A stretch of DNA of 11,422 nucleotides from a virus. The DNA lies in UHGV virus genome UHGV-2155131; one strand, given 5' to 3'. The notes under the pieces were generated by a model, which ran no database searches, was not told where the DNA came from, and saw only the letters and a list, made by a program, of their open reading frames with translations. Of the stretch, positions 147 through 11,422 are shown piece after piece. Both the position numbers and the translations under genes were made by a program. How positions within the stretch are numbered: position 1 is the stretch's first letter; every line of letters starts with the position of its first letter.

Positions 147-172
147 AATTAACTACACCATTAACTACACCG
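147..172. repeat. Left copy of 26-bp direct repeat (aattaactacaccattaactacaccg); putative attL core
   Basis: Identical 26-mer recurs at 11126..11151. It contains an internal tandem 12-mer (attaactacacc x2). Confidence 0.7.
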
Positions 173-312
173 TTTCACGAACAATATCGAACAACCACGA
201 ACAAAGATCAACACGCTTTAACCGTTATCATTTTCCGGCTATCCGTTATGAAGCTGGTGGATGTTCCCCGATATGGGGATCCCCACCTACCGGAATTTTT
301 GCCAGGTTAAAT

Positions 313-551
313 GTTAACCTCTGCCCTGTTAACATTTTTACCAAAAAGGTAGTTAACATTTTTTGCACGCAACCAGATGAATCATAAAGAAAAAATCAAC
401 AACAACGCTTCATCAGGCAGTTAACATGTTAACTACTACGAAACGGTAATTTTTTCTCTGCGTGAGAGGGGGCGCGGTGTCCAGCTTATTCGTTGTTCGT
501 GGCTAACCACTCCCCCCCCATGCCGGATTTTTTTTCCGGTTAACTGTTAAT
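313..551. promoter_or_regulatory. Cluster of GTTAAC-containing palindromes in the left arm (candidate recombinase arm-type / IHF / regulator sites)
   Basis: GTTAAC at 313, 328, 352, 420, 428, 539. GTTAACATTTTT occurs twice (328..339, 352..363). Perfect 14-bp palindrome gttaacatgttaac at 420..433. Inverted repeat ccgga-T7-tccgg at 523..539. Confidence 0.3.
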
Positions 552-592
552 CAGGCTGGTGGGTTTTACATACCCTTGATCACCGTAATGAT

Positions 593-814
593 GATCCAGA
601 TCTGCACCTTTCCACCAATGGTGGAAAAGCCCACAGCAGGCCGCCCAGCCTCCACCAATGGGGTAAAAGCATCAACCGTAACGAAAGTCGTTATGGTTGC
701 CACCGATACCCCAAATTTGGGTATCACGAGTAAGCCCCAAAATCTGGGTGTTACTCTTACCACCCAAACTACGGGTAGTTTCCGTAGTTTCATGGTCGAG
801 TTGCAGATCTGCAA
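593..814. repeat. Repeat-rich non-coding segment bounded by two GCAGATCTGC palindromes, with four CCNCCAAWNTGGG-type repeats
   Basis: tgcagatctgca at ~596..607 and ~801..812. ccaccaatggtgg (613..), ccaccaatgggg (651..), ccccaaatttggg (708..), ccccaaaatctggg (735..). The three overlapping ORFs here lack Shine-Dalgarno sequences. Confidence 0.3.
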
Positions 815-1110
815 CTCCCCCATTAACCACAGGCGAATTTCCGCCTTCGGTCATTCCTTAATCATCTGCGTAATCATAATGATTATTCAGCAAGCGCAAT
901 TTTGCGCTTTGCTTAAAGTTCAGCGAGTTACCGCGCCGACTTCCTCAAATTGAGGTTTCCGAAAATATCAGCGGGTTAGCGATTAAGCTGATCATTAATT
1001 AAACTGCGAAAATTTCGTAGTTTGTGACTGTCTTTCAGGCAGCTTGTTAACAGTCCTCAGAAGCGAGGGATGTAGCCACCCATTTTTGGTCCGTCGGGAA
1101 TATCAACCAG

Positions 1111-1392
1111 TTACCGCCGCAACCGCTCCGGCTTCTTCCAGTGGTACGTTATTTTCTCCTTCTCCCGATACATCTCCACGCGGCGACGGTAGGCCAGCAA
1201 CTCAAGAACTCTGGTTCGTATGTTGCGCATATCCACGCCATTAAGTTCTATACCATCACGGCGCATCACCTCCGCAACAACACGCGCATAATTTTCAGCG
1301 GTCACGCTGTCCGGCTGCGTGGCCTGTTCGTCAACCTGCTGGCTGATTCCGGCAACGCGGCGGATTAATCCCAGTATTTCGGCTTCTGTCAT
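1111..1392 (-). CDS. Hypothetical protein (93 aa) in the position a small terminase occupies relative to cos
   Basis: ATG start at 1392 preceded by a GGGGG motif. The translation is charged and helix-rich, unlike the antisense ORFs. It lies downstream of the cosB-like region on the same strand as the right cos copy. Confidence 0.5.
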   Translation of the reverse strand: MTEAEILGLIRRVAGISQQVDEQATQPDSVTAENYARVVAEVMRRDGIELNGVDMRNIRTRVLELLAYRRRVEMYREKEKITYHWKKPERLRR

Positions 1393-1425
1393 TGTGCCCC
1401 CATCGTTCTGATAGTCTGGTGTCGT

Positions 1426-1490
1426 CGGGTCCTTCCTGGAATTATGGCCCGTTACGGGGCGGCGACCTCGCGGTTTTTCGCTATTTATGA
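1426..1490 (+). other. Lambda-type cos site, left copy (cosQ-like + cosN GGGCGGCGACCT at 1457..1468), plus orientation
   Basis: gttacg|gggcggcgacct|cgcgg...ttttcgctatttatga matches the lambda cohesive-end region recalled from the lambda genome left end. Forms a 65-bp inverted repeat (62/65 identical) with 1959..2023. Confidence 0.6.
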
Positions 1491-1828
1491 GATTTTTTGA
1501 GGGGGTGGTTGTTGTTTAATTGTTTGGTATATCTAATTGATAAGTAAGGTAAAAATAAAATTAATACAACAACCTTACGATGTATTTTGATGTCATTAAT
1601 GTGAAAAAATTCAATGATATCAAATGGTTTTGTAAAAACACATGGTTGTTGTATCGCGTATTTGATGGCGTAACAGAAAGTGATTTTTAACTTTACCGCT
1701 CTGTAACTACGGATTATTCCATGCTGGCACGGAGAACGGCTACGGCATGACGCCACCCAGCCTATACAGAACAGTAAAGCCGATAAATTGTTAATCACGC
1801 GCAGCAATGCGTGTGATTTTTGCACACT

Positions 1829-1958
1829 TCCGGTTAACGGGTACGATGTCCGGTTTTAGTGTCTGTTTTTTGCGCATGTCCGGTTCATAGAAAGCATGTT
1901 TTTATATTTTTCATATGGTTAACTTGCAGAGAAACCGGACATGGATCCCGGAAAATTT
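1829..1958 (-). promoter_or_regulatory. cosB-like region with TGTCCGGTT repeats (candidate small-terminase R sites) and an AT-rich IHF-like stretch
   Basis: tgtccggtt at 1850..1858 and 1879..1887, inverted copy aaccggaca at 1934..1942, related cttccggttaac at 1829..1840. Lies directly next to the right cosN, as cosB does in lambda. Confidence 0.4.
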
Positions 1959-2023
1959 TCATAAATAGTGAAAACGCGCGAGGTCGCCGCCCCGTAACGG
2001 GCCATAATTCCAGGAAGGACCCG
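1959..2023 (-). other. Lambda-type cos site, right copy (cosN at 1981..1992 on minus strand), the copy most similar to lambda cos
   Basis: Reverse complement reads acgggtccttcc...gttacg|gggcggcgacct|cgcgcgttttcactatttatgaaaattttccgg, matching lambda cosQ/cosN and the start of cosB through TATTTATGAAAATTTTCCGG. Confidence 0.7.
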
Positions 2024-2024
2024 T

Positions 2025-2046
2025 AAAAAAGCCGGATTTCTCCGGC
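2025..2046 (-). terminator. Rho-independent terminator ending the capsid operon
   Basis: On the minus strand: hairpin gccgga-gaaa-tccggc followed by a T6 run, 7 nt after the stop of the 2053..2460 gene. Confidence 0.6.
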
Positions 2047-2052
2047 CTTGTC

Positions 2053-2460
2053 TCAGATGGTTTTCAGTATGCGATCGATGTCGCCGTCATCGCCCTGGTT
2101 TNNNNNNNNNNNNNNNNNNNNNNNNNNNNNNNNNNNNNNNNNNNNNNNNNNNNNNNNNNNNNNNNNNNNNNNNNNNNNNNNNNNNNNNNNNNNNNNNNGC
2201 TCTATGGTCATGTTCAGGATTTCACGAGCATTATCGACGCTAATACATGGCACGTTTGCCATTGCACGTAACAGCGGCTGATAGTCTTTATGCTCATGAA
2301 GCGCCATAATCGCATCAGCGCGCGGCTTGTCCTGCTCTTCCAGTTTGTTTAGTTGATATACGGCCTCATAGGTTGATAAACCTCTGTCAGCCATTGCCCG
2401 CGCTTCGGCTTTAAATTTACTCGCCAGCGGTAGCGTCATGATGCTTTCATTCGTTGCCAT
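2053..2460 (-). CDS. Hypothetical protein, last gene of capsid operon; reading frame spans an assembly gap
   Basis: Start at 2460 with a GGGGG motif and TAA-coupled spacing after the decoration gene. N-terminal 87 aa are real sequence. The C-terminal 15 aa and the terminator placement suggest the gene ends at 2053, but frame continuity across the N run is unverifiable. Confidence 0.45.
   Translation of the reverse strand: MATNESIMTLPLASKFKAEARAMADRGLSTYEAVYQLNKLEEQDKPRADAIMALHEHKDYQPLLRAMANVPCISVDNAREILNMTIEXXXXXXXXXXXXXXXXXXXXXXXXXXXXXXXXXNQGDDGDIDRILKTI
2102..2198. other. Assembly gap (97 N)
   Basis: Literal run of n in the sequence. Confidence 0.95.
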
Positions 2461-2472
2461 CGTTCCCCCTGC

Positions 2473-2808
2473 TTATCGGGCCAGCGGCTGAACGGATACG
2501 CCGGAACCCGCAAAGGCGGCGCATTTTTTCGCATCGGTGTCGACGCTCTCAGGCCAGTTAACGGCGGCAATATTGAATATCCCCGTCTTGTAACACTGTG
2601 CTGATTTCTGCTTTGACGTGTCCACAGGGTACGAGGTCAGATAAACAGCCTTGCCAGATTCCTTACCATCCCACGGCTTAAACTCGCCATTGTCCGCCAG
2701 CATCAGCGGGGTAAATTCCTGAATAACGCCAGCATCAGCGGCAAAATGTACCAGCGTCGTGGCGACCTGCTGACTGCCTGCAAATAACTCAATGTATGGA
2801 GTGTCCAT
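2473..2808 (-). CDS. Head decoration protein, lambda gpD-like
   Basis: 111 aa. Shares TPLML, WDG, YKxGxF, WPE and KKxAAFAG motifs in the same order as lambda gpD (recalled from memory). GGGGG Shine-Dalgarno motif 6 nt before ATG. Confidence 0.8.
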   Translation of the reverse strand: MDTPYIELFAGSQQVATTLVHFAADAGVIQEFTPLMLADNGEFKPWDGKESGKAVYLTSYPVDTSKQKSAQCYKTGIFNIAAVNWPESVDTDAKKCAAFAGSGVSVQPLAR

Positions 2809-2819
2809 AGAATCCCCCG

Positions 2820-3875
2820 TTAACCAATTTTGACGGTAACAAATTTGCGAATATCTGCCGGAACCGGCTGCGGTGCGCTGTGCGTCTGCACGTACTCAAT
2901 CGCCGGATCGCCGTCCTCAATCCAGTTTTTCGGGTAAAACATGTTTTGCGTTGCGCCCGTTCTTACTGCGTCCTGATCCATAATCGCACCATAGGCCACC
3001 AGCCCTTTATTGTTGGTGTTGCCCAGGACAAGCAAATCAGGCTCAAGGAAATATTTTTCTGTGCCGTCGCTGTCAGTGTATTTGCCGGAATAGACGATAA
3101 GGGCAATATCGCCCAGATAGCCTTTAAAGCTCACCACTTCGCCCAGGTTTTTACAGGCCAGCTCTGCGGCGGACTCTGAACCACGGGAAAGATCGTACAG
3201 CTCACGGAATTTTTTAAAGCTGCGTAACGTTCGCCATACCTCAGCGCCCATAATCATGACGTTTGCGGGGCAACCAGCCTGATCGGCGTATAGTTCGATA
3301 TCATAGATTGGATCGTGGGTTTCTTTGTCCTGCTCTGACCATTTTTTCCCGTCGGCCTGCTCTATGATGTTTTTTTCCGGTATCTTCCAGTCGATTTCAT
3401 AGCGCTCTATGCCTTCGCCTTCAATGATGTTTTTTCCGGTCGTTACCGCATTTACCGCCAGCCATTCCACGCGCGCTTTTATGGCGTTTATCTGGCGGCG
3501 CATATTGCCAGTAATCAGGCGCATACGGCGATAGGTAGGGTCGTTAAGCTGTGCCGGATCTTCTCCAGCCATGCGCATGATGGTTTTCGTTGGATCGATT
3601 TCGTGCTTTGGCTTCATGTAGCCAGGTTTAATCGTGCTGGTTTCGTACCCTTTATCGCGCTGAACCTGGCTACCCACCATAGGCGAACAAAACGCCGACA
3701 TGGTGACTTCTTCAATGTCCAGGGTATCCAGCATGATGTTTTGCGTGCTGAATGTCGCCACGTTCGGGAAAAACAGCGTGGTAAACAGCGGACTGAATTT
3801 AAATTCCGCAATATCCCCGCGATTCAGGTACGCAAAAAGCTGGTTAGTGTTAAGTGCCATTGCTTTTACTGTCAT
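2820..3875 (-). CDS. Major capsid protein, lambda gpE family
   Basis: 351 aa. Collinear with lambda gpE across the whole length (FKFxPLF, TPGYxKPKHE, DPxYRRxRxI, WSxxDKxTxDP, YSGxY, VLGNT, YPKNW, GDPA, SAP). Start overlaps the upstream stop (TAATG). Confidence 0.9.
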   Translation of the reverse strand: MTVKAMALNTNQLFAYLNRGDIAEFKFSPLFTTLFFPNVATFSTQNIMLDTLDIEEVTMSAFCSPMVGSQVQRDKGYETSTIKPGYMKPKHEIDPTKTIMRMAGEDPAQLNDPTYRRMRLITGNMRRQINAIKARVEWLAVNAVTTGKNIIEGEGIERYEIDWKIPEKNIIEQADGKKWSEQDKETHDPIYDIELYADQAGCPANVMIMGAEVWRTLRSFKKFRELYDLSRGSESAAELACKNLGEVVSFKGYLGDIALIVYSGKYTDSDGTEKYFLEPDLLVLGNTNNKGLVAYGAIMDQDAVRTGATQNMFYPKNWIEDGDPAIEYVQTHSAPQPVPADIRKFVTVKIG

Positions 3876-4081
3876 TATTCACCCCCGTGAACCTGATTCA
3901 TACCCAGCGCCGCGCGTAAATAGGCGCGTACCTGCCAGCCTGTTGACGGCTCAACCATCGCCAGCGGATCAAGTCCTGCCGCAATGCCTGCTTTTACGTT
4001 CTGCTGGTGGCGTTCCTTGAGCGCCTTCACGATGTCGGGGCTTATGTACACCGAAACACCGCCTTTTTTCTCTTCAGCCAT
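3875..4081 (-). CDS. Small hypothetical protein (68 aa) translationally coupled to the capsid gene; possible beta-strand/helix DNA-binding-like pattern
   Basis: AGAGGAA Shine-Dalgarno motif 9 nt upstream of ATG at 4081. TAATG overlap with the capsid gene start. Function not recognised. Confidence 0.5.
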   Translation of the reverse strand: MAEEKKGGVSVYISPDIVKALKERHQQNVKAGIAAGLDPLAMVEPSTGWQVRAYLRAALGMNQVHGGE

Positions 4082-4248
4082 AGTAAGAAATTCCTCTTTG
4101 ACTTAAAAAATCATAACTGGATGTTCATCCAGATCTGATTATAATCATGATTGCATTTTATGCAATGATGTTGAGTTGTGTTGCAAAATATGAAATGATG
4201 ATCCCGATCATGTGTGTCAGTGCACCAAAAAAAACCTCATATGCAAAA
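4082..4248 (-). promoter_or_regulatory. Putative late/capsid operon promoter region with palindromes
   Basis: AT-rich stretch between the bidirectional terminator and the first capsid-operon gene. Contains ctggatg-tt-catccag (4119..4134) and tgattataatca (4137..4148, includes a TATAAT-like hexamer). Confidence 0.35.
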
Positions 4249-4287
4249 GCCCGATAAGATGCCTCCTGTACTTATCGGGCTTTTTTT
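4249..4287 (+). terminator. Rho-independent terminator-like hairpin (gcccgataag ... cttatcgggc + T7)
   Basis: 10-bp perfect stem, 12-nt loop, T7 tail on the plus strand. May act bidirectionally together with the neighbouring hairpin. Confidence 0.5.
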
Positions 4288-4293
4288 GGGTAC

Positions 4294-4316
4294 AAAAAAG
4301 CCGGATTACTCCGGCT
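4294..4316 (-). terminator. Rho-independent terminator for the regulator / replication-side operon
   Basis: On the minus strand: hairpin gccgga-gtaat-ccggc then T6, 6 nt after the stop at 4322. Nearly identical to the terminator at 2025..2046. Confidence 0.55.
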
Positions 4317-4321
4317 GTTGA

Positions 4322-4594
4322 TTAGCTGTCTGGGTAATTACGCCATATTTCATCGCTTACACCATCTATACCCATTTCAGCATAAGTGCGATCTACTGCC
4401 TTTCTCAGGTCTCCGAAGTTATCCGGCGGCTCCGGTGGCTTCTGTGCCTTCCTGGAACATTCCAGCCGTCGCATCGTAACCTGATGCCGTTCCTTGTCTG
4501 TCTCCACCAGTTGCATGACTTCACCCCATCGTGCCGCCGCCCTCCGGTAAAAGCCTTTTGCCTCGAGTTCCTCCGCTATGCGGTCATGTACCAT
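4322..4594 (-). CDS. PerC-family transcriptional regulator-like protein
   Basis: Motif AEELEAKGFYRRAAARWGEVM resembles the conserved PerC/Pch core as I remember it. Preferred start is ATG 4594 with GAGGGGG upstream, directly after the SSB-tail stop. The ORF track extends to a GTG at 4714. Confidence 0.55.
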   Translation of the reverse strand: MVHDRIAEELEAKGFYRRAAARWGEVMQLVETDKERHQVTMRRLECSRKAQKPPEPPDNFGDLRKAVDRTYAEMGIDGVSDEIWRNYPDS

Positions 4595-4604
4595 CCTCAC
4601 CCCC

Positions 4605-4897
4605 TCAGAACGGAATATCATCACCGTAAGGGTCATCGCCTCCCGCTGGTGGCTGATTACCCTGTGTGCCTGTGGTCTTGCGTCTGTTCCCGCCAGGACG
4701 TGCCGCACGGGCACTGATTACGCTGTCTGCAATAACCTGATAACCCTGCCGCGTTTCCCCGTTCTGTCCGGTCCACTGGCTGATCTGCATGGCAAAGATA
4801 CCGCCATACGCGCCAGCGTCATCGGTGTACCCTTGCTGGTCTGTTTTACCTGCGGGTCGTCCACCAGCCGCCCGTAAGCGGCTATCTGTGCTGTCAT
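4605..4897 (-). pseudogene. SSB-like gene remnant in two frames: N-terminal OB-fold fragment (4718..4897) and C-terminal fragment ending in the DDIPF acidic tip (4605..4790)
   Basis: Frame A (MTAQIAAYGRLVDDPQVKQTSKGTPMTLARMAV...) resembles the SSB N-terminus. Frame B (...QISQWTGQNGETRQGYQVIAD...GGDDPYGDDIPF) resembles the SSB beta4-5 region and C-terminal tail. The frames overlap out of phase, about 40 aa of OB fold are missing, and no slippery heptamer was seen. Confidence 0.5.
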
Positions 4898-5172
4898 GAT
4901 TCCACCTCTCCGGTTTTAACGTTGATGGTTGTTACCTGTTCCGCTTCTGCAATCTCCCGCTCTGTCAGCGTGGCAAAGTTTGCCGCCGCCGTGGTCATGA
5001 ATGCGCTTATTAGTTCGGGATGTGCTTTCGAGTATCCTTCTCCCGCTGTGATGTCTATCACCTTTATAGCCACCTTTAAGGCGTGCTCTGTCATCTCCAG
5101 CGCTTTATATCTTGGTGCTGTTCTGTCTTTGCGTTTTTTGAGTGATTTGTTAAATCTTCCTGATGTGTGCAT
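4894..5172 (-). CDS. Hypothetical protein (92 aa)
   Basis: ORF starting next to the iterons. Its stop overlaps the SSB-like frame A start (ATGA). Function not recognised. Confidence 0.45.
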   Translation of the reverse strand: MHTSGRFNKSLKKRKDRTAPRYKALEMTEHALKVAIKVIDITAGEGYSKAHPELISAFMTTAAANFATLTEREIAEAEQVTTINVKTGEVES

Positions 5173-5220
5173 TTTTATTTTTACCCTCGTGTTTAAAAAG
5201 TTTTAGGTTGTGGTGCACCT

Positions 5221-5445
5221 CCTCTACCTCTCTACCTAATCATCTTTCATGTCAGTAATGGCGCGGCTTTCAGATGGGTAGAGGGCTTTCGTGGCCCTCT
5301 ACCCATCCTCTACCCGCCCCTCACAAACGATCTTAATCATGGTAGAAGAGGTAGAGAGGTTTTATTAGCCTTCTACCTAGCCCTCTACCCACTTATCATG
5401 TTGAATAATATGCGTTTATTTCATTCAGGTAGATTGGGTAGAGGG
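5221..5445. repeat. Iteron array; candidate replication origin downstream of the primase gene
   Basis: About 10 copies of CTCTACC / GGTAGAG in both orientations (e.g. 5222, 5230, 5276..5285, 5295..5304, 5307..5315, 5350, 5381..5390, 5436..5445), including the palindrome gggtagagggc-N7-gccctctaccc (5276..5304). Flanked by AT-rich stretches. Confidence 0.6.
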
Positions 5446-5458
5446 CTTTTACAAAAAA

Positions 5459-7207
5459 TTATAAAAACGCGTCACAATCATCAGTTGTAATTGCGTTGGT
5501 CTGCGTTACTCCCTTAACTCTCCGCGTAATATATTCATGTCCGTAAACTTTTGCCGCTGGCTTCATGGCCTTGCTGAACTCAGCCACGTTTAGCGGTTTG
5601 CTCCTGCCTGCGTATGCCATAAACGCCAGATAGACGCGGTAAAGGCTGTTTCTGGTCGTGTACTTCACGGAATCGCCACCGCCACCCATCATCAGGCCGC
5701 GAGCTTCCTCCAGAAAATTCAGGAACTGGCAAAACTCAATAACCGGATCCGTCTGTTGCTTTATCGCCAGTGCTTCATCACCGTCGCGCTGTTCCAGTAA
5801 TAAAGCCCGTGCCTTTTCAGGGTCGGCAAAATTAGCCAGCAAGCGACGGATAATTACGGGGATTTCAGCCGCGACCTTCTCCGGCAAATCCTTGTCTTTT
5901 TCGTCCTCCCTTACAATGTTGTCGAACCGGAAAATCACCCGACGGCGTGACACACCTCCGGCCCGCTCGGTGAATATCATCGGGTTATTGTTGGTAGCCA
6001 GCACCACCGCCCTGATTACCGCCGTAAAACGCTTCTCATATTTCGGGTTTATTTCCACTGGGTCGCCGCCCGTGATTTTCTTGATGCCCGTTCCTTCGCC
6101 TGTATATTTCGGCTGGTCAGCCAGGACGATAAGACGACTCCCGACAACCTGCGCACGTCCACCAGCATCATCAAGTGAGGTCATTTCAGCGCTTACCGTG
6201 TTCTGTTTCCCTGCCAGAAGGCTGGCTATGTGCGTGAATGTACTTTTACCGCTACCGCCCTCTCCGGTGGCCTCAATAAACATCTGCCAGTCGTACCGGT
6301 TCGCCATAATCATGTACAGCGCGGCACATATACGCATCATCTTGCGCGGGTCTTTTCCGGCTGCGTGCTCAAGCCATTTATGAAAGTTTGGCGCGTTGTC
6401 GCAGATATTCTCCCCTGGTGCTGGTGGCGTGTACTCAATGCCGTTGTGCGTGGTGATCCAGTTCTCCGGCGTGTGCGGGGAAAATTCCCCCGTTTTCAGG
6501 TCAAGCGCACCATTGGCGAACGGCAGCAAATCGCCGGACGGCTCCCCCATTGGTTCGGCAATAACTTTTAACGCTTCAACGGCGTTATTGATCACGCGTT
6601 TGCTAAAAGTGGCCCTGTGCTCTGAATAGATCGCCACCATTTCGCGGCTAAGTTCCATTGTGCTGACCGGACACCATACCCCGCCGCGCCATACGTGAAC
6701 GATTTCACTTTCCGGATGCACACAAACGCCATCAAATCGACCAGCAAGCATCTGTGCGCGCTCACTGTCTGCCATTTGTGCCAGTTGCGTATTTTTCTGC
6801 TCCGGCATGGTAAGCCCTGCGGCAATATTTTCACGCTCAGCATTCAGATAGCGCCGCCAGTTTTCACACTTCTGGACGTGCATTCCTTCGGGGTAAAAAT
6901 TTGCGTCCTGAATATCTGCCGCCGCCAGCTTCTGACCAATCTTTTTGGTCTCCACCAAATCCAGTTCTCCGGCCTGGTACAGCCTTACGCGTTTTTTTCC
7001 ATCCGGAACAATTTTCAGTGCATCAAGTTCGGCAAGCTGATTTGGCCCAAGCCACACAGGCGGCACATTATCGCCGGATGCGGGGCCATCCTGCTCCTGC
7101 CATTGTTTCGCGTGCGACCAGGCATCACTACCCGCGAAAATAATTACCTCTGTGTCTTTGTGTTTTATTCCGCGTGGCTGTTTTTTTACGTTCGGTGCCA
7201 GTTTCAT
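5459..7207 (-). CDS. P4-alpha-like primase / SF3 helicase replication protein
   Basis: 582 aa. Walker A motif GEGGSGKST mid-protein with a D5_N-like upstream region, typical of phage/plasmid primase P4-family C-terminal domains. GGGG motif before ATG; ATGA overlap with the upstream gene. Confidence 0.85.
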   Translation of the reverse strand: MKLAPNVKKQPRGIKHKDTEVIIFAGSDAWSHAKQWQEQDGPASGDNVPPVWLGPNQLAELDALKIVPDGKKRVRLYQAGELDLVETKKIGQKLAAADIQDANFYPEGMHVQKCENWRRYLNAERENIAAGLTMPEQKNTQLAQMADSERAQMLAGRFDGVCVHPESEIVHVWRGGVWCPVSTMELSREMVAIYSEHRATFSKRVINNAVEALKVIAEPMGEPSGDLLPFANGALDLKTGEFSPHTPENWITTHNGIEYTPPAPGENICDNAPNFHKWLEHAAGKDPRKMMRICAALYMIMANRYDWQMFIEATGEGGSGKSTFTHIASLLAGKQNTVSAEMTSLDDAGGRAQVVGSRLIVLADQPKYTGEGTGIKKITGGDPVEINPKYEKRFTAVIRAVVLATNNNPMIFTERAGGVSRRRVIFRFDNIVREDEKDKDLPEKVAAEIPVIIRRLLANFADPEKARALLLEQRDGDEALAIKQQTDPVIEFCQFLNFLEEARGLMMGGGGDSVKYTTRNSLYRVYLAFMAYAGRSKPLNVAEFSKAMKPAAKVYGHEYITRRVKGVTQTNAITTDDCDAFL

Positions 7208-7503
7208 TTTTTACCCCTGAATACGTTAAGCATCTTTTTTATTTCCTGAATATTGGCGCGTGCTTTCTCCCTGCTGGTGGGCACGTTACGCGGTACGGCC
7301 TGCACCAGAGAAAAATCACGATCGAACTGATAAACAGGCATCACGCAATCATATTCGTAGCCTTCACGACGGTAGGTTACGCGCCGTTCCTCCACGCCCT
7401 TAATCATTACCGTGCCGCCGTACTGGTCGCGGTAAATATCACCGCGCATGAATTTAGTGCGAGTTTTGCCACTGGCAGTTAAGCCAGAATATTTAAGTTT
7501 CAT
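7204..7503 (-). CDS. Hypothetical protein (99 aa), translationally coupled to primase
   Basis: ATG at 7503 with GGAG upstream. Stop overlaps the primase start. Confidence 0.5.
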   Translation of the reverse strand: MKLKYSGLTASGKTRTKFMRGDIYRDQYGGTVMIKGVEERRVTYRREGYEYDCVMPVYQFDRDFSLVQAVPRNVPTSREKARANIQEIKKMLNVFRGKK

Positions 7504-7508
7504 TATTT

Positions 7509-7739
7509 TTATTCTCCGGTGTGGGGCGCTTTATTATTCTCGTGAATTGCCATAGCCTTATTGAGTTCATCAATAACAGGTGTCAATAATGTCTGAACAG
7601 CGGCAAACATTAATGATGAATGATCTTCGCCACCTTCCGGCACTTCAATTAATTTAATTAATAACGCATTCATTTCGCGTGCTTTAATTAATGCGTTTTC
7701 AGAGTGGATTAATACTTCAAAAGGGATTTTATGCATCAC
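7509..7739 (-). CDS. Small hypothetical protein (about 75 aa) in a low-GC segment
   Basis: GGGAG Shine-Dalgarno motif before a GTG (7739) / ATG (7736) start. Helical, acidic composition. Confidence 0.5.
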   Translation of the reverse strand: MMHKIPFEVLIHSENALIKAREMNALLIKLIEVPEGGEDHSSLMFAAVQTLLTPVIDELNKAMAIHENNKAPHTGE

Positions 7740-7959
7740 AAATTTTCTCCCTTATTCTTTTAATGTCCTCATTAAGGATGTCTGTAACTTTTATCAGCGA
7801 GTTTTTGGCAATTATTTTTATTGTTTTAAGTTTTCTTTTGTCGTGCTCCGACTGTGATTTTCTTTCCATAATCTCCACCATGTGGGTAACATCAACGAGC
7901 GCACGTATCAGTATTTGCATTGCTTCTTCTGCTGCGTCCGGACGGGTGTTATTGCACAT
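7729..7959 (-). CDS. Small hypothetical protein (76 aa) in a low-GC segment
   Basis: Strong AGGAGG Shine-Dalgarno motif 6 nt before ATG 7959. 11-nt overlap with the downstream gene. Confidence 0.55.
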   Translation of the reverse strand: MCNNTRPDAAEEAMQILIRALVDVTHMVEIMERKSQSEHDKRKLKTIKIIAKNSLIKVTDILNEDIKRIREKICDA

Positions 7960-8155
7960 GGCACACCTCCTGACGAATACGGGCAGCGAATACCATCACG
8001 CAGCCAGCCGGGGATTGCTGGCGTGCTTCCTGTTCGCTGGTGGCCTCGATGGTAATCACGCGCGGTTGTGCCGTGCTCAGGGCGATAAAACGCCAGATGT
8101 ATTTATTCAGGTCGTGCGAGTCCCGCCCTTGCGGGTGTGTGGTATGATTTCTCAT
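7949..8155 (-). CDS. Small hypothetical protein (68 aa), probable first gene of the leftward replication operon
   Basis: Internal ATG at 8155 with GAGG 6 nt upstream. Protein-like translation (MRNHTTHPQGRDSHDLNKYIWRFIALS...). Same frame as the long 439-codon ORF. Confidence 0.4.
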   Translation of the reverse strand: MRNHTTHPQGRDSHDLNKYIWRFIALSTAQPRVITIEATSEQEARQQSPAGCVMVFAARIRQEVCHVQ

Positions 8156-9268
8156 AGCTGCCTCGATACTTTCGCTATCGTTGGTGGTTAGAAGCCCGGT
8201 TAGTGTTAGCGCACTGCCGGGTTTCGTCGTTTCTGCACCTTGCGCCAACAAGGTGTTGAACACCAATTTAAACCCAGGTGTTAAACACGTCAAGTGTTGA
8301 ACACTTATTTTTTTTCCTGCATACTGCATTTGTTTTTTATGAGGGGTACACCACATGGCGACAAAAGCAGTAAACGCAAAATCACAAACCGTTGCGGCAA
8401 GGGTTCCGCATGAAGTTATGAACAATGTTGAGGCGGTAAAAATGCCTGGCGAAAGTACGGGGCAATTTGTTACTGCGGCATTAAAACGAGAAGTTGAATA
8501 TCGCCAGCGGCGCAAGGCCAGTGAATCCGAGAAATCATTAATCACGTCATAACATGAAGAACGATGGCGATAATCATAGGAGTAAAAGATGTTAAAATTA
8601 AAAAAACATGTACCAATGATGGTTGCTTTAATTATCACAATCTTTCTCTTAATATCATGCTTTGAGAAAAATAGTCTTTGCTCAAACGATAAGGGCGATT
8701 TATTACGGCGTGCTTGCGATGTAGAGTTGAAAAAAAGTTGAGCACTACCTAACCGAGACAATGCCGTAGTTCCTGTAATCACAGGATCGCTCAGGCTTTG
8801 CCCACCAGCCGCAAATATGGCATTGTTGGCAATGCTCATGCGTTGGGGATAACGTGTAGCTTGTGTCGAGGGGCCACCGTAGCGGGTGGCCTTTGTTTTG
8901 CCCGTTATTCGGCAATTGTGGCGCTTCTCCACATGGTTGATATAATCCCACTGCTCAGATTCATTTTTTGCGCAGTAGGTTAATTGTTCACAAAGGCGCT
9001 CCGGCAACGGGGCGCTTTTTGTTTTTATTAGTTTGTAGAAACCTGACTCAGAGATAATGCTCATATTCTGATTGCCGTCAGGGGTGTAAGTTAAATTTAC
9101 TCCCTTTTTATCATCAAACATCTGCAACGCTCTGGCGTTAACAATATTGGTTTCACTCCCGCCAGTAAGGCCGGAAATAACCGGAATAATTTCGGCAAAA
9201 TTTTGCAGATTCTGTTTTTCAGGACGAACGAAGCCCCGCCCTTGTTCGGGAGAATATCCAGTATTCAT
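7949..9268 (-). CDS. Bro-N domain (antirepressor-like) protein; only the N-terminal ~175 aa (about 8745..9268) is recognisable and the 3' extent is uncertain
   Basis: DGNQNMSIISESGFYKLI...LPERL matches the Bro-N core motif (NMNIINESGLYSLI). The frame then runs stop-free for about 800 nt through low-complexity translation, antisense to the RHH gene and the operators. Confidence 0.45.
   Translation of the reverse strand: MNTGYSPEQGRGFVRPEKQNLQNFAEIIPVISGLTGGSETNIVNARALQMFDDKKGVNLTYTPDGNQNMSIISESGFYKLIKTKSAPLPERLCEQLTYCAKNESEQWDYINHVEKRHNCRITGKTKATRYGGPSTQATRYPQRMSIANNAIFAAGGQSLSDPVITGTTALSRLGSAQLFFNSTSQARRNKSPLSFEQRLFFSKHDIKRKIVIIKATIIGTCFFNFNIFYSYDYRHRSSCYDVINDFSDSLALRRWRYSTSRFNAAVTNCPVLSPGIFTASTLFITSCGTLAATVCDFAFTAFVAMWCTPHKKQMQYAGKKISVQHLTCLTPGFKLVFNTLLAQGAETTKPGSALTLTGLLTTNDSESIEAAMRNHTTHPQGRDSHDLNKYIWRFIALSTAQPRVITIEATSEQEARQQSPAGCVMVFAARIRQEVCHVQ
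8253..8304. promoter_or_regulatory. Three operator-like inverted repeats GTGTTNAACAC within divergent promoters
   Basis: Copies at 8253..8263, 8278..8288 and 8294..8304. Rightward promoter candidate: -35 TTGAAC (8297..8302) and -10 CATACT (8320..8325). Leftward candidate: -35 TTGACG (complement of 8288..8293) and -10 TAAATT (complement of 8265..8270). Confidence 0.5.
8355..8552 (+). CDS. Ribbon-helix-helix-like small DNA-binding protein (putative island repressor/regulator)
   Basis: GAGGGG Shine-Dalgarno motif 8 nt before ATG. N-terminal beta-strand with alternating hydrophobics (TVAARVPHEV) followed by two helices, as in Arc/CopG-type proteins. Diverges from the operator region. Confidence 0.5.
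   Translation: MATKAVNAKSQTVAARVPHEVMNNVEAVKMPGESTGQFVTAALKREVEYRQRRKASESEKSLITS
8589..8666 (+). CDS. Candidate 25-aa cationic/hydrophobic peptide (MLKLKKHVPMMVALIITNLSLNIML) downstream of the RHH gene
   Basis: Canonical AGGAG 6 nt upstream of ATG. Below the ORF-track size cutoff. Composition resembles small membrane peptides. Translated by hand. Confidence 0.25.
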
Positions 9269-9320
9269 GGTTAGATCTCTGTATTAGTGGATGGGTGGCG
9301 GCTGTGTGCCGCCAGCCTGA

Positions 9321-9509
9321 TTAGTGAACTGCCTCGCAGCTGTCCTTCCATGCCAGAACTTCGGATAAAGACCAGCCAACGGAACGACCGCCCAGCTTAC
9401 GCCGTGATGGGAATTGTCCGGCTTTTTCCAGGCGGTACCGACATGAGCGGCTCAGGCCTGTAAGTTGCTGACATTCTTTTTCACGTATAAAGCGATCTGT
9501 GCTTAACAC
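9321..9509 (-). CDS. alpA: AlpA-family phage transcriptional regulator / excisionase-like protein
   Basis: 62 aa with the LxxxxRSVGWxxSEVxxW signature of AlpA-type winged-helix proteins. Located between int and the rest of the island, as in PICIs and P4-like elements. Confidence 0.8.
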   Translation of the reverse strand: MLSTDRFIREKECQQLTGLSRSCRYRLEKAGQFPSRRKLGGRSVGWSLSEVLAWKDSCEAVH

Positions 9510-9790
9510 AATTCCCCCTTTGTTGTTTCTTAAAGAGTCATTGGGTGGATTATTGGGTTGGGTTGTGTCGGATTGTGTCAGGGTGTTTGTGGAATGGCAA
9601 ACACTGGCGGCGGTCGTTTTACAGAAGCAGGGGGAATGAGAATAAAAACTCTTTTAATTCATTATGATGCAAAGGCATAAAATTTTACTTTTACGCCTTT
9701 TTTACATATTTTTAAGAGTGATTCGCCAGTGTATAAAAAAACAGTACACCTATAAAAATCAAATGGTTATTACGATGGCTGATTTTTAAC

Positions 9791-9850
9791 CCGTTGTTCC
9801 ATTTTGTTCCTTGTTGTTCGTCGTTGTGTCTCGTTGTTTCACGTTGTCCG
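9791..9850. repeat. Six tandem 10-bp repeats (NCGTTGTNYC) just 3' of int, in the alpA upstream region
   Basis: ccgttgttcc / attttgttcc / ttgttgttcg / tcgttgtgtc / tcgttgtttc / acgttgtccg in helical phase. Confidence 0.5.
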
Positions 9851-9874
9851 CATCCTGAAAAATCGCAAAAAAAA

Positions 9875-11125
9875 TTATATTTCTCTGGCTATTGGCAATG
9901 TGGTTACGTTTTCATGTGTTCCCGCCAGTATCCCTAACCGCTCCGTCCACATATCCAGCGCGTCACGTTTCGCATCCAGATAACGGGAATGGTTATAGAC
10001 TCGTTGCATCCCTGGCATCTGATGACCTGTAAGCTGCTCCACGACGTGAGGATCCACGCCTAAATCGTTCAGCATCGTTGTAAAGGTGCGCCGGATGTCA
10101 TGCAGTGACCAGTGAGGGTGTTTTAGCCTCCTGTGCGCTAATCTACCGTACTGCGACACGCTTGTTTCCTGTTTCACTTCCCCCAGCAATAAGCCCGTGT
10201 GCCTGTTCTGCTCCACCAGCTGCGTGACGAACGGCAGTATTGCTTCCGGTATGGGCCGGAATATTGCCACCTTCGTTTTGCTGTGTTCTTTCGGCACGGT
10301 CCAGAGCATTTCGGTAAAATCCCACTCGCTGATCTCCGATAACCTCAGTTCTACCGTCCGGCATCCGAAAACAATCAGGAGGCGGATTAGTGCGACGTAG
10401 TAAGGGGAAAATATTTTTTTGTCCAGTGCCTGCAATAATTCGCCAAGTTCTTTGGTGCTTAAGACACGCTCGCTTATATCCGGTTTTTTCCCAACGTCCG
10501 CCACACTCATATCATCAAGAACGTTGCTGATTGCATAGCGCCGCCTCCGGCAGAACTTAAGCGCCTGTTTGCACGTCTGTAGCAAGAATCCGGCAGTAAC
10601 AGGCGTTCGCTTTGCCACCTGGTCAAAACAGGCCAGCCAGTGCCGTAGCTCGCATTTATCCAGCGGCATAGCACCAATGTGCTGTATTACGTGATTATTA
10701 AGGCGCTTTTTCAGGGCGGCATAATCCACGCGGTTTTCCTTTGCGTACGACTCAAGCCAGTAGGTGAGCGCATCGCCAACCGTTACCGGCTTTAACGCTT
10801 CCTGTACGGTGTAATTAAGCTCATGACGTGGATTTTTCCCCTCTGCCAGCCATGCGCGACACTGGGCGGCTTTTTCCCTGGCTGATTTCAGGCTCAGATC
10901 AGGATAATTTCCCAGCTTAATGCGTTCCGGTGGTGCCCCCCTTCCCGTTCCGGCCCTGTAAGTGAAATACCAGGTTAAAAGGCCACTGGTTGAATGCCTG
11001 ACGCTCAGGTTTCCACCGTCATTAAGAAAGGCTGTTTTTTGGGCGGGTGTGCCGTTGATTTTCCTCAGCTGTGTATCGCTCAGTTTGTTAAGTGCTCTGC
11101 TCATAATTTTGATTCCGGTCATCAC
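9875..11125 (-). CDS. int: P4-family tyrosine integrase
   Basis: About 410 aa. N-terminal arm-binding-like region (LSDTQLRK...GGNLSVRHSTSG...WYFTYR) and C-terminal catalytic region with an HxxRRT-like motif (LHDIRRTF). The 11125 start is GTG; ATG alternatives at 11122 and 11104. Confidence 0.9.
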   Translation of the reverse strand: MMTGIKIMSRALNKLSDTQLRKINGTPAQKTAFLNDGGNLSVRHSTSGLLTWYFTYRAGTGRGAPPERIKLGNYPDLSLKSAREKAAQCRAWLAEGKNPRHELNYTVQEALKPVTVGDALTYWLESYAKENRVDYAALKKRLNNHVIQHIGAMPLDKCELRHWLACFDQVAKRTPVTAGFLLQTCKQALKFCRRRRYAISNVLDDMSVADVGKKPDISERVLSTKELGELLQALDKKIFSPYYVALIRLLIVFGCRTVELRLSEISEWDFTEMLWTVPKEHSKTKVAIFRPIPEAILPFVTQLVEQNRHTGLLLGEVKQETSVSQYGRLAHRRLKHPHWSLHDIRRTFTTMLNDLGVDPHVVEQLTGHQMPGMQRVYNHSRYLDAKRDALDMWTERLGILAGTHENVTTLPIAREI

Positions 11126-11151
11126 AATTAACTACACCATTAACTACACCG
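11126..11151. repeat. Right copy of 26-bp direct repeat; putative attR core, immediately upstream of the integrase start
   Basis: Exact match to 147..172. P4-family integrases classically have their att core just upstream of int. Confidence 0.7.
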
Positions 11152-11352
11152 ATCGTTGCACAAAGGGCTACAACGTGAAACAAGCTGGAACAAGGAAAAT
11201 CACAAATCTGTTTATAATCAAAAACATAATGAACAATCTGAAACATTATGAAACGGCAAAAAACACTAATTGATAAAATATGCCCATACTTCACGCATTA
11301 CGTTAAGCATCCGTTATAATCGGTTGCAGATACCAGCCTGTGGATGCTTAAC

Positions 11353-11422
11353 ATGGAATACCAACTCACTCTTAACTGGCCCGATTTTCTTGAACGTCAC
11401 TGGCAGAAACGCCCGGTGGTGT
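11353..11422 (+). CDS. roxA: 5' end of a chromosomal roxA (ycfD)-like gene, partial
   Basis: Translation MEYQLTLNWPDFLERHWQKRPVV matches my memory of the E. coli YcfD/RoxA N-terminus. Lies outside the right direct repeat. Confidence 0.55.
   Translation, partial: MEYQLTLNWPDFLERHWQKRPVV

Follow-up and report, generated by a model that had tools for sequence, protein, structure and literature searches.

A PerC-family gene, pchE, at the end of the replication operon of an EcCICFT073-type PICI

What does a PerC-family gene do in a small satellite island, where it lies between the replication genes and the capsid genes? We asked this of an 11,422-nt stretch of viral DNA (UHGV-2155131; hereafter the window), in which a preliminary description had noted such a gene just before a strong terminator. 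It had proposed that the gene is satellite cargo through which host gene expression could be influenced or, alternatively, that the satellite uses a PerC-like activator for its own late operon.

Identity of the gene and of its island

The gene is read from the minus strand (Table 1), which the preliminary description had left unstated, although the limits it gave for the gene are exact. A longer GTG-started open reading frame (4322..4714) is also called here; the match to the PerC profile begins at residue 41 of this frame, which is the ATG at 4594, and the identical 273-nt coding sequence is annotated in near-identical islands in RefSeq. A profile search, to which the family assignment had been left, gives a match of the predicted protein to Pfam PF06069 (PerC) over model positions 1-89 of 90 with an E value of 6.3e-45 and 151.8 bits (cut-off 22.6); judged by profile statistics this is far beyond chance, and the assignment is upheld. 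The protein also matches phrog_994 (E 2.8e-46). Moreover, an alignment of 49 PerC-family sequences, which are representatives of 50%-identity clusters, yields the family residues A7, L10, E11, G14, R17, R18, A19, R22, W23, C46, M74 and G75, every one of which is present in the protein. When compared with PchE (ECs_1588) of EHEC O157:H7 Sakai, it is identical at 89 of 90 positions, the remaining residue being the single difference. This near-identity, together with the place of the gene after ssb in a satellite with a P4-type integrase, puts the protein in Pch group 3 (PchE), and by sequence comparison the gene is pchE, the group-3 PerC homologue of EHEC O157:H7, carried in an EcCICFT073-type phage-inducible chromosomal island (PICI). 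Its G+C content (57.5%) is close to that of ssb (58%), so that perC is not an AT-rich moron. The four perC DNA alleles are too alike for dN/dS to inform.

An 86-aa E. coli protein opens with the N-terminus of ssb (MTAQIAAYGRLV), which is joined in frame to PerC from residue 30 on (ETDKERHH...); it is an ssb-perC deletion fusion, apparently formed at a common 'LV' motif. The pchE locus of several O157:H7 RefSeq genomes bears a second, overlapping label, 'trigger factor', which looks like an annotation artefact.

Table 1. Coordinates of perC and associated features in the window
Feature	Position	Strand	Details
Whole island, ~11 kb	147..11151		perfect 26-nt direct repeats 147-172 and 11126-11151; roxA/phoQ site
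Hairpin with U-rich tail	4132..4117	minus	6 bp; at expected capsid transcript start
Capsid operon promoter, by eye	TTGCAT 4165..4160; TATAAT 4143..4138	minus	16-nt spacer; -35 matches 3/6
Palindrome	4146-4170	minus	11-nt arms (CATGATTGCAT/ATGCAATGATG); overlaps -35 hexamer
Terminator T2	4240..4291	minus	14-bp stem, arms 4245-4258 and 4271-4284, 100% complementary; -20.5 kcal/mol, z -4.9
Terminator T1	4293..4316	minus	AGCCGGAGTAATCCGGCT + U6; 7-bp GC-rich stem at 4316..4299; -12.6 kcal/mol, z -4.4
perC/pchE coding sequence	4322..4594	minus	ATG at 4594, stop TAA 4324..4322; 90 aa; full-length match to Pfam PF06069
ssb stop/perC Shine-Dalgarno junction	4595..4607	minus	ssb stop 4607..4605 overlaps GAGG Shine-Dalgarno, 8 nt before perC ATG
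ssb	4605..4897	minus	directly upstream of perC; 119-nt internal deletion, frame shifted
92-aa ORF	4894..5172	minus	first gene of orf-ssb-perC; 80% identical to ECs_1586; phrog_1231, E 3.6e-47
Primase/92-aa ORF intergenic region	5173..5458	minus	GGTAGAGG iterons and presumed orf-ssb-perC promoter

The satellite context named in the preliminary description was borne out. On the minus strand the genes run in the order integrase, AlpA-type regulator, DUF4222, D5-type primase, iteron origin, 92-aa ORF, ssb and perC, and perC is followed by a 68-aa ORF, a lambda-E-type major capsid gene, a lambda-D-type decoration gene and a scaffold-like ORF. When examined by the criteria used for PICIs in PMC6092414, the island has int, alpA, a replication gene with an iteron origin, direct-repeat att sites and a size within ~10-15 kb, without lysis or tail genes. 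Alignment with CFT073 DNA gives 95.7% identity over 2199-4790, which covers perC and the capsid module, and 99% over 8795-11422 at the integrase end, and from these comparisons the window is an EcCICFT073-type PICI at the roxA/phoQ site. The island encodes capsid, decoration and scaffold-like proteins without a portal, protease or terminase. Rpp, which redirects helper TerS to the island cos, is not encoded intact in the window, where rppA is reduced to its last 22 codons (1696-1761); the comparison island L001 has the same rppA-less layout. Judged by its gene content, this copy of the island may be defective for transfer, or unable to direct its own packaging.

Several other features of the island deserve mention. 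Inverted repeats of 72 nt (1426-1497 and 1952-2023, 93% complementary) flank a 454-nt segment. The corresponding 72-nt repeats of CFT073 flank rppA, and part of the window segment is inverted relative to CFT073; the repeats might be the pair of cos sites known from EcCICFT073. Following the decoration gene is an ORF (2053-2460, minus strand; its L001 counterpart has 137 aa) that matches phrog_53, 'head maturation protease', in its C-terminal part, and the matched part is the Nu3 scaffold-like part of lambda gpC; in the window this ORF is broken by a masked run of 97 N (2102-2198). The DUF4222 protein (99 aa, 7204-7503, minus strand) is 93% identical to ECs_1581 (RgdR), the OI-51 type III secretion regulator, and keeps the RGD motif (FMRGDIY), so that with perC and an RgdR homologue the island carries two published virulence-modulating regulators. 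The stretch 7740-9220 is unlike the S1-CAM-02-A and Sakai Sp7 islands, and CFT073 matches it only at 7965-8242 and from 8795 onward. This part of the island holds a 439-codon ORF (7949..9268, minus strand), the N-terminal part of which is weakly like Ant/BRO anti-repressors while the rest looks non-coding, and a YlcI/YnfO family gene on the plus strand (8355-8552).

The orf-ssb-perC unit and its boundaries

In O157, RNA-seq and 5' RACE place pchE on a polycistronic ECs1586-ssb-pchE mRNA, with the transcription start site 10 nt upstream of ECs1586 (PMC7369912), and the window has the same three-gene layout of 92-aa ORF, ssb and perC. The last cistron of this short unit is perC, and the unit would start at the island origin region. 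The 8-mer GGTAGAGG/CCTCTACC has six exact copies in the window, every one inside 5173-5458, where they occur in both orientations around an AT-rich stretch. These iterons are of the PICI origin type; the PICI origin sits just 3' of the replication gene (PMC6092414). At the other end of the unit, L001 and CFT073 have exactly the ssb-perC junction of the window and Sp7 has it almost unchanged, and the overlap of the ssb stop with the Shine-Dalgarno sequence suggests translational coupling of perC. The ssb gene itself is damaged by comparison with the S1-CAM-02-A and Sakai Sp7 islands, relative to which the 119 nt are deleted; as a result it is represented by two overlapping ORF fragments (4897..4718 and 4790..4605). 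Nevertheless, perC is intact despite the damage to ssb and rppA.

The strong terminator claimed for the end of perC is real and, moreover, double, with T1 and T2 standing in tandem. An A7 run on one side of T2 and a U-tract on the other make it probable that T2 is bidirectional. Homology to Sakai Sp7 ends at window position 4294 and resumes only at 1099-1392, which identifies T1 as a module boundary and places perC in the replication-side module. The orf-ssb-perC unit ends at T1/T2, and these terminators would keep it insulated from the capsid genes. The hairpin that ends perC (AAAAAAGCCGGATTNCTCCGGC; window 4294-4315) is repeated with 95% identity at 2025-2046, after the last gene of the capsid operon, and in Sakai Sp7 the same hairpin follows both pchE and ECs_1589 (10050-10075 and 10405-10430 in the Sp7 locus). 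On sequence grounds it looks like a terminator cassette reused at module junctions.

Predicted action of PerC and the alternatives

The predicted product is small and all-helical: three helices form an ANR-like N-terminal domain, which a proline-rich linker joins to two short C-terminal helices, and the predicted model contains no helix-turn-helix. Searching the PDB with the perC protein sequence gave matches at chance level only (E 0.15 or worse) and no solved relative, and a Foldseek comparison with viral predicted structures gave nothing significant (best E 0.08). The ANR (AraC negative regulator) model NF033650 matches residues 7-51 of the protein over model positions 9-53 of 54, with an E value of 0.0018 and 18.1 bits; since the curated cut-off is 32 bits, the protein is not an ANR member by that standard. 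The same model is, however, matched at E <=0.01 by 36 of the 49 PerC-family members (best E 3e-7), and on this profile evidence the PerC N-terminal three-helix domain is homologous to the ANR family. ANR proteins have three helices and a highly conserved cysteine (PMC4038620), and in the 49-sequence PerC alignment the cysteine that closes helix 3, Cys46, is near-invariant. The window protein has the three N-terminal helices and Cys46, but at 90 aa it is longer than ANR proteins (39-80 aa) and has two extra helices, in line with the proline-rich linker and two-helix C-terminal part by which PerC differs from ANR. In addition, ANR genes (Aar and relatives) accompany AraC-type activators, whereas none is found in the window island. 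ANR matches had been noticed earlier for the EcCIMP1 PerC-like protein by the authors of PMC11773190, so that our family-wide count is a modest extension of their observation. The consistency of the profile link between PerC and ANR supports a protein-binding rather than a DNA-binding mechanism.

Published work on PchE bears directly on the proposal that the satellite could influence its host. Over-expression of pchE represses csgD, curli, biofilm formation, eae, lpfA1 and stpA, strongly activates flhDC/fliC and motility, and lowers HEp-2 adherence (PMC6265319, PMC7369912). For the most part these effects on the host were obtained by over-expression from plasmids; deletion has only a slight curli phenotype (PMC6265319). 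Unlike pchA/B/C, neither pchE (group 3) nor pchD (group 2) is reported to be needed for LEE expression (PMC6265319). Because PchE is reported not to activate the LEE and mostly represses on over-expression, the label of a virulence activator is misleading. The preliminary description is therefore supported in part: an influence on host gene expression has the backing of the published PchE experiments, made on a protein from which ours differs by one residue, but the activator label does not fit. As for mechanism, PchA activates LEE1 by relieving H-NS/StpA/Hha silencing, and Pch proteins are without homology to known DNA-binding proteins (PMC4764244); an unpublished observation quoted in the same paper is that PchA was not co-precipitated with H-NS. 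PerC would act on host promoters in trans, through interference with complexes of nucleoid proteins or of regulators, perhaps of the H-NS/StpA/Hha type as for PchA, or perhaps by binding a regulator as ANR proteins do, and it would not be a classical sequence-specific activator of the satellite capsid promoter. Taken as a whole, we regard as probable the explanation that the gene is pchE in an EcCICFT073-type PICI, expressed as the last cistron of its unit, and that its ANR-like product acts in trans on host promoters.

The distribution of the gene raises the further question of whether it is cargo at all. PerC homologues have already been described as common PICI genes (PMC6092414, PMC11773190), and RefSeq names the perC homologues 'PerC family transcriptional regulator'. 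Of 5426 complete E. coli genomes, 724 (~13%) carry a close perC DNA homologue (>=80% identity), and the wider 1.5-kb region is matched in 1280 E. coli genomes. In a small synteny survey, comprising 11 loci from a search with a 12-sequence alignment (Escherichia ruysiae, Atlantibacter, three species of Enterobacter, Shimwellia, Lonsdalea, two Pantoea, Chimaeribacter and Erwinia), the perC homologue comes right behind the satellite primase, in the same orientation, at all 11 loci, with ssb in between at 5. At five further E. coli loci the order is DUF4222, primase or RepA-helicase, an ORF, usually ssb, then perC and then an HK97 capsid module. Hence every satellite examined, in E. coli and across at least nine enterobacterial genera, has perC as the closing gene of its replication operon; to call it cargo is fair as to its carriage by the satellite, but understates this fixed position. 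A strictly fixed place at the end of the replication operon suggests a role in the satellite life cycle, and the invariant position in E. coli directly upstream of the morphogenesis module also fits such a role.

One alternative, which we judge unlikely, takes this position as its starting point and makes PerC a core satellite gene in the conflict between satellite, helper and host, for example an ANR-like anti-activator or anti-silencer of a host or helper regulator. PerC would then favour island maintenance, induction and replication, and its effects on the LEE, curli and flagella would be side effects or later co-options. The position is held not only across the genera but also with different initiators (primase or RepA helicase), and in phage SfV the PerC-like domain, as the C-terminal part of orf40, again comes directly after the replication gene. 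The homology of the N-terminal domain to ANR, a family of protein-binding anti-activators, and the survival of perC beside damaged ssb and rppA point the same way, as does the report that EcCIMP1 affects helper replication and superinfection immunity (PMC11773190). Against this, the PerC family is rare in sequenced phages (11 of 50,697 records), and retention in a decaying island fits a benefit to the host equally well. A more general form of the idea is that PerC is a conserved core gene of enterobacterial PICI/cf-PICI replication operons, an ANR-like protein-binding modulator whose original satellite job (e.g., island counter-silencing or neutralising a host or helper regulator) came first and whose control of LEE, curli and flagella was co-opted later; this we hold to be possible, if doubtful.

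We consider it quite unlikely that PerC is instead the late regulator of the satellite, made from the replication operon after induction and activating or counter-silencing the capsid promoter (~4138-4165). The attraction of this reading is positional, since perC lies directly upstream of a morphogenesis module, of the lambda E/D or the HK97 type, in all seven E. coli islands examined. Late activators in phages, such as lambda Q and P2 Ogr, often occupy such an upstream position. In addition, the intergenic region 4001-4200 is AT-rich (39.5% G+C), which is the kind of DNA bound by Pch proteins and H-NS (PMC4764244). Alleles that are 99% identical nevertheless precede two unrelated capsid modules, in the window and in Sp7, and the control regions that follow perC in these two islands have no common motif of at least 9 bases; shared 8-mers number 6 and 5 where 2.4 are expected, an unconvincing excess. 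Moreover, perC is not followed by capsid genes in EcCIMP1 (PMC11773190) or in the other genera, where the genes 3' of it are lipoprotein-like and large coiled-coil-like ORFs instead. The expression pattern is also contrary, because pchE is transcribed at a low steady level without induction and drops ~3- to 7-fold with SOS-inducing antibiotics (PMC6265319, PMC7369912). The two terminators separate the perC unit from the capsid operon, which appears to have a promoter of its own, recognised by eye and not called by a consensus promoter scan of 3800-5500, which found no sigma-70 site. This promoter and its palindrome suit a dimeric DNA-binding protein or a helper-phage factor, and the PerC model is without such a domain; from their sequence, the palindrome and the adjacent hairpin could together form an operator with an attenuator, or with an antitermination target, for a helper-phage factor. 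The suggestion that a PerC-like activator serves the satellite's own late operon is thus left without support and with some evidence against it. Finally, although the island shows decay elsewhere (the ssb frameshift and the rppA remnant), the reading of perC as a functionless passenger or mis-called ORF is effectively refuted and extremely improbable, given an intact frame with a full-length profile match, all near-invariant family residues and 89/90 identity to PchE, intact homologues at 42-54% identity in many genera, and a PchE transcript and phenotypes shown by experiment (PMC7369912).

Earlier publications cover the gene and its family, as well as its carriage by Gram-negative PICIs and its effects on adhesion and motility, and RefSeq names it, so the feature is already known. 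The value of the present analysis lies in correct annotation rather than discovery, with modest additions in the fixed last place of perC in the replication operon, the ANR homology of its N-terminal domain and the lack of a helix-turn-helix. Two of these points may serve specialists as pointers, namely the fixed position of perC and the PerC-ANR profile link in a biochemically poorly defined family. If PerC is indeed a core satellite gene, then PerC proteins are not accessory virulence cargo.

Comparison with known systems

Activation of the LEE1/ler promoter gave the family its name. The window protein has features in common with EPEC PerC (EAF plasmid) and EHEC PchA/B/C (group 1), including the Pfam family, the N-terminal LExxG-YRRAxxRW motif, the cysteine and the C-terminal MGI. 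A group-1-like plasmid-borne PerC is only ~40% identical to it, and a plasmid copy that was inspected is an isolated PerC gene among IS elements. Group 1 activates LEE1/ler, whereas for PchE little or no LEE activation is reported (PMC6265319; PMC11773190, which cites Iyoda 2004 and Porter 2005). Closer in setting is EcCIMP1_025, likewise a PerC-family gene in an E. coli PICI, with repressor-like effects on virulence genes; its product is ~40% identical to the EcCICFT073 and EcCIEDL933 proteins, and EcCIMP1 is without structural genes (PMC11773190).

The allele itself is nearest to that of the Sakai prophage-like element Sp7/O-island 51 (CP-933C), in which PchE has been listed beside a P4-like integrase, an alpha-like replication gene, ssb and structural genes (Flockhart et al., PMC3378721). 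As in the window, a homologue of the 92-aa ORF (ECs_1586) and ssb precede pchE and the same first terminator hairpin follows it; the chromosomal insertion site is also the same, with 91% identity over int and the roxA flank. The homologous stretches of the two islands are the integrase end, the DUF4222 gene, the primase gene in its 5' part, the 92-aa ORF for the most part, ssb, perC and T1. Beyond pchE, Sp7 continues with an ORF of 74 aa and a full HK97-type set of head and packaging genes (capsid, protease, portal and terminase), whereas in the window perC is followed by a mini-module with a lambda E/D-type capsid. The primases and origin iterons differ too, Sp7 having other iterons (TAACCCGCA) at the equivalent place, which match its different primase.

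In overall layout the window agrees with EcCICFT073, the prototype Gram-negative PICI, whose capsid and decoration genes are c1499 and c1500 (PMC6092414). Both have int, alpA, the DUF4222/RgdR gene, primase, orf, ssb, perC, a 68-aa ORF, capsid E, decoration D and a scaffold-like ORF. Both ssb and rppA are whole in uropathogenic strain CFT073, whereas in the window ssb is frameshifted and rppA is reduced to the remnant, and the PerC-like protein of EcCICFT073 (WP_000233305.1) is 83% identical to the window protein, with 82 aa and a different C-terminal tail.
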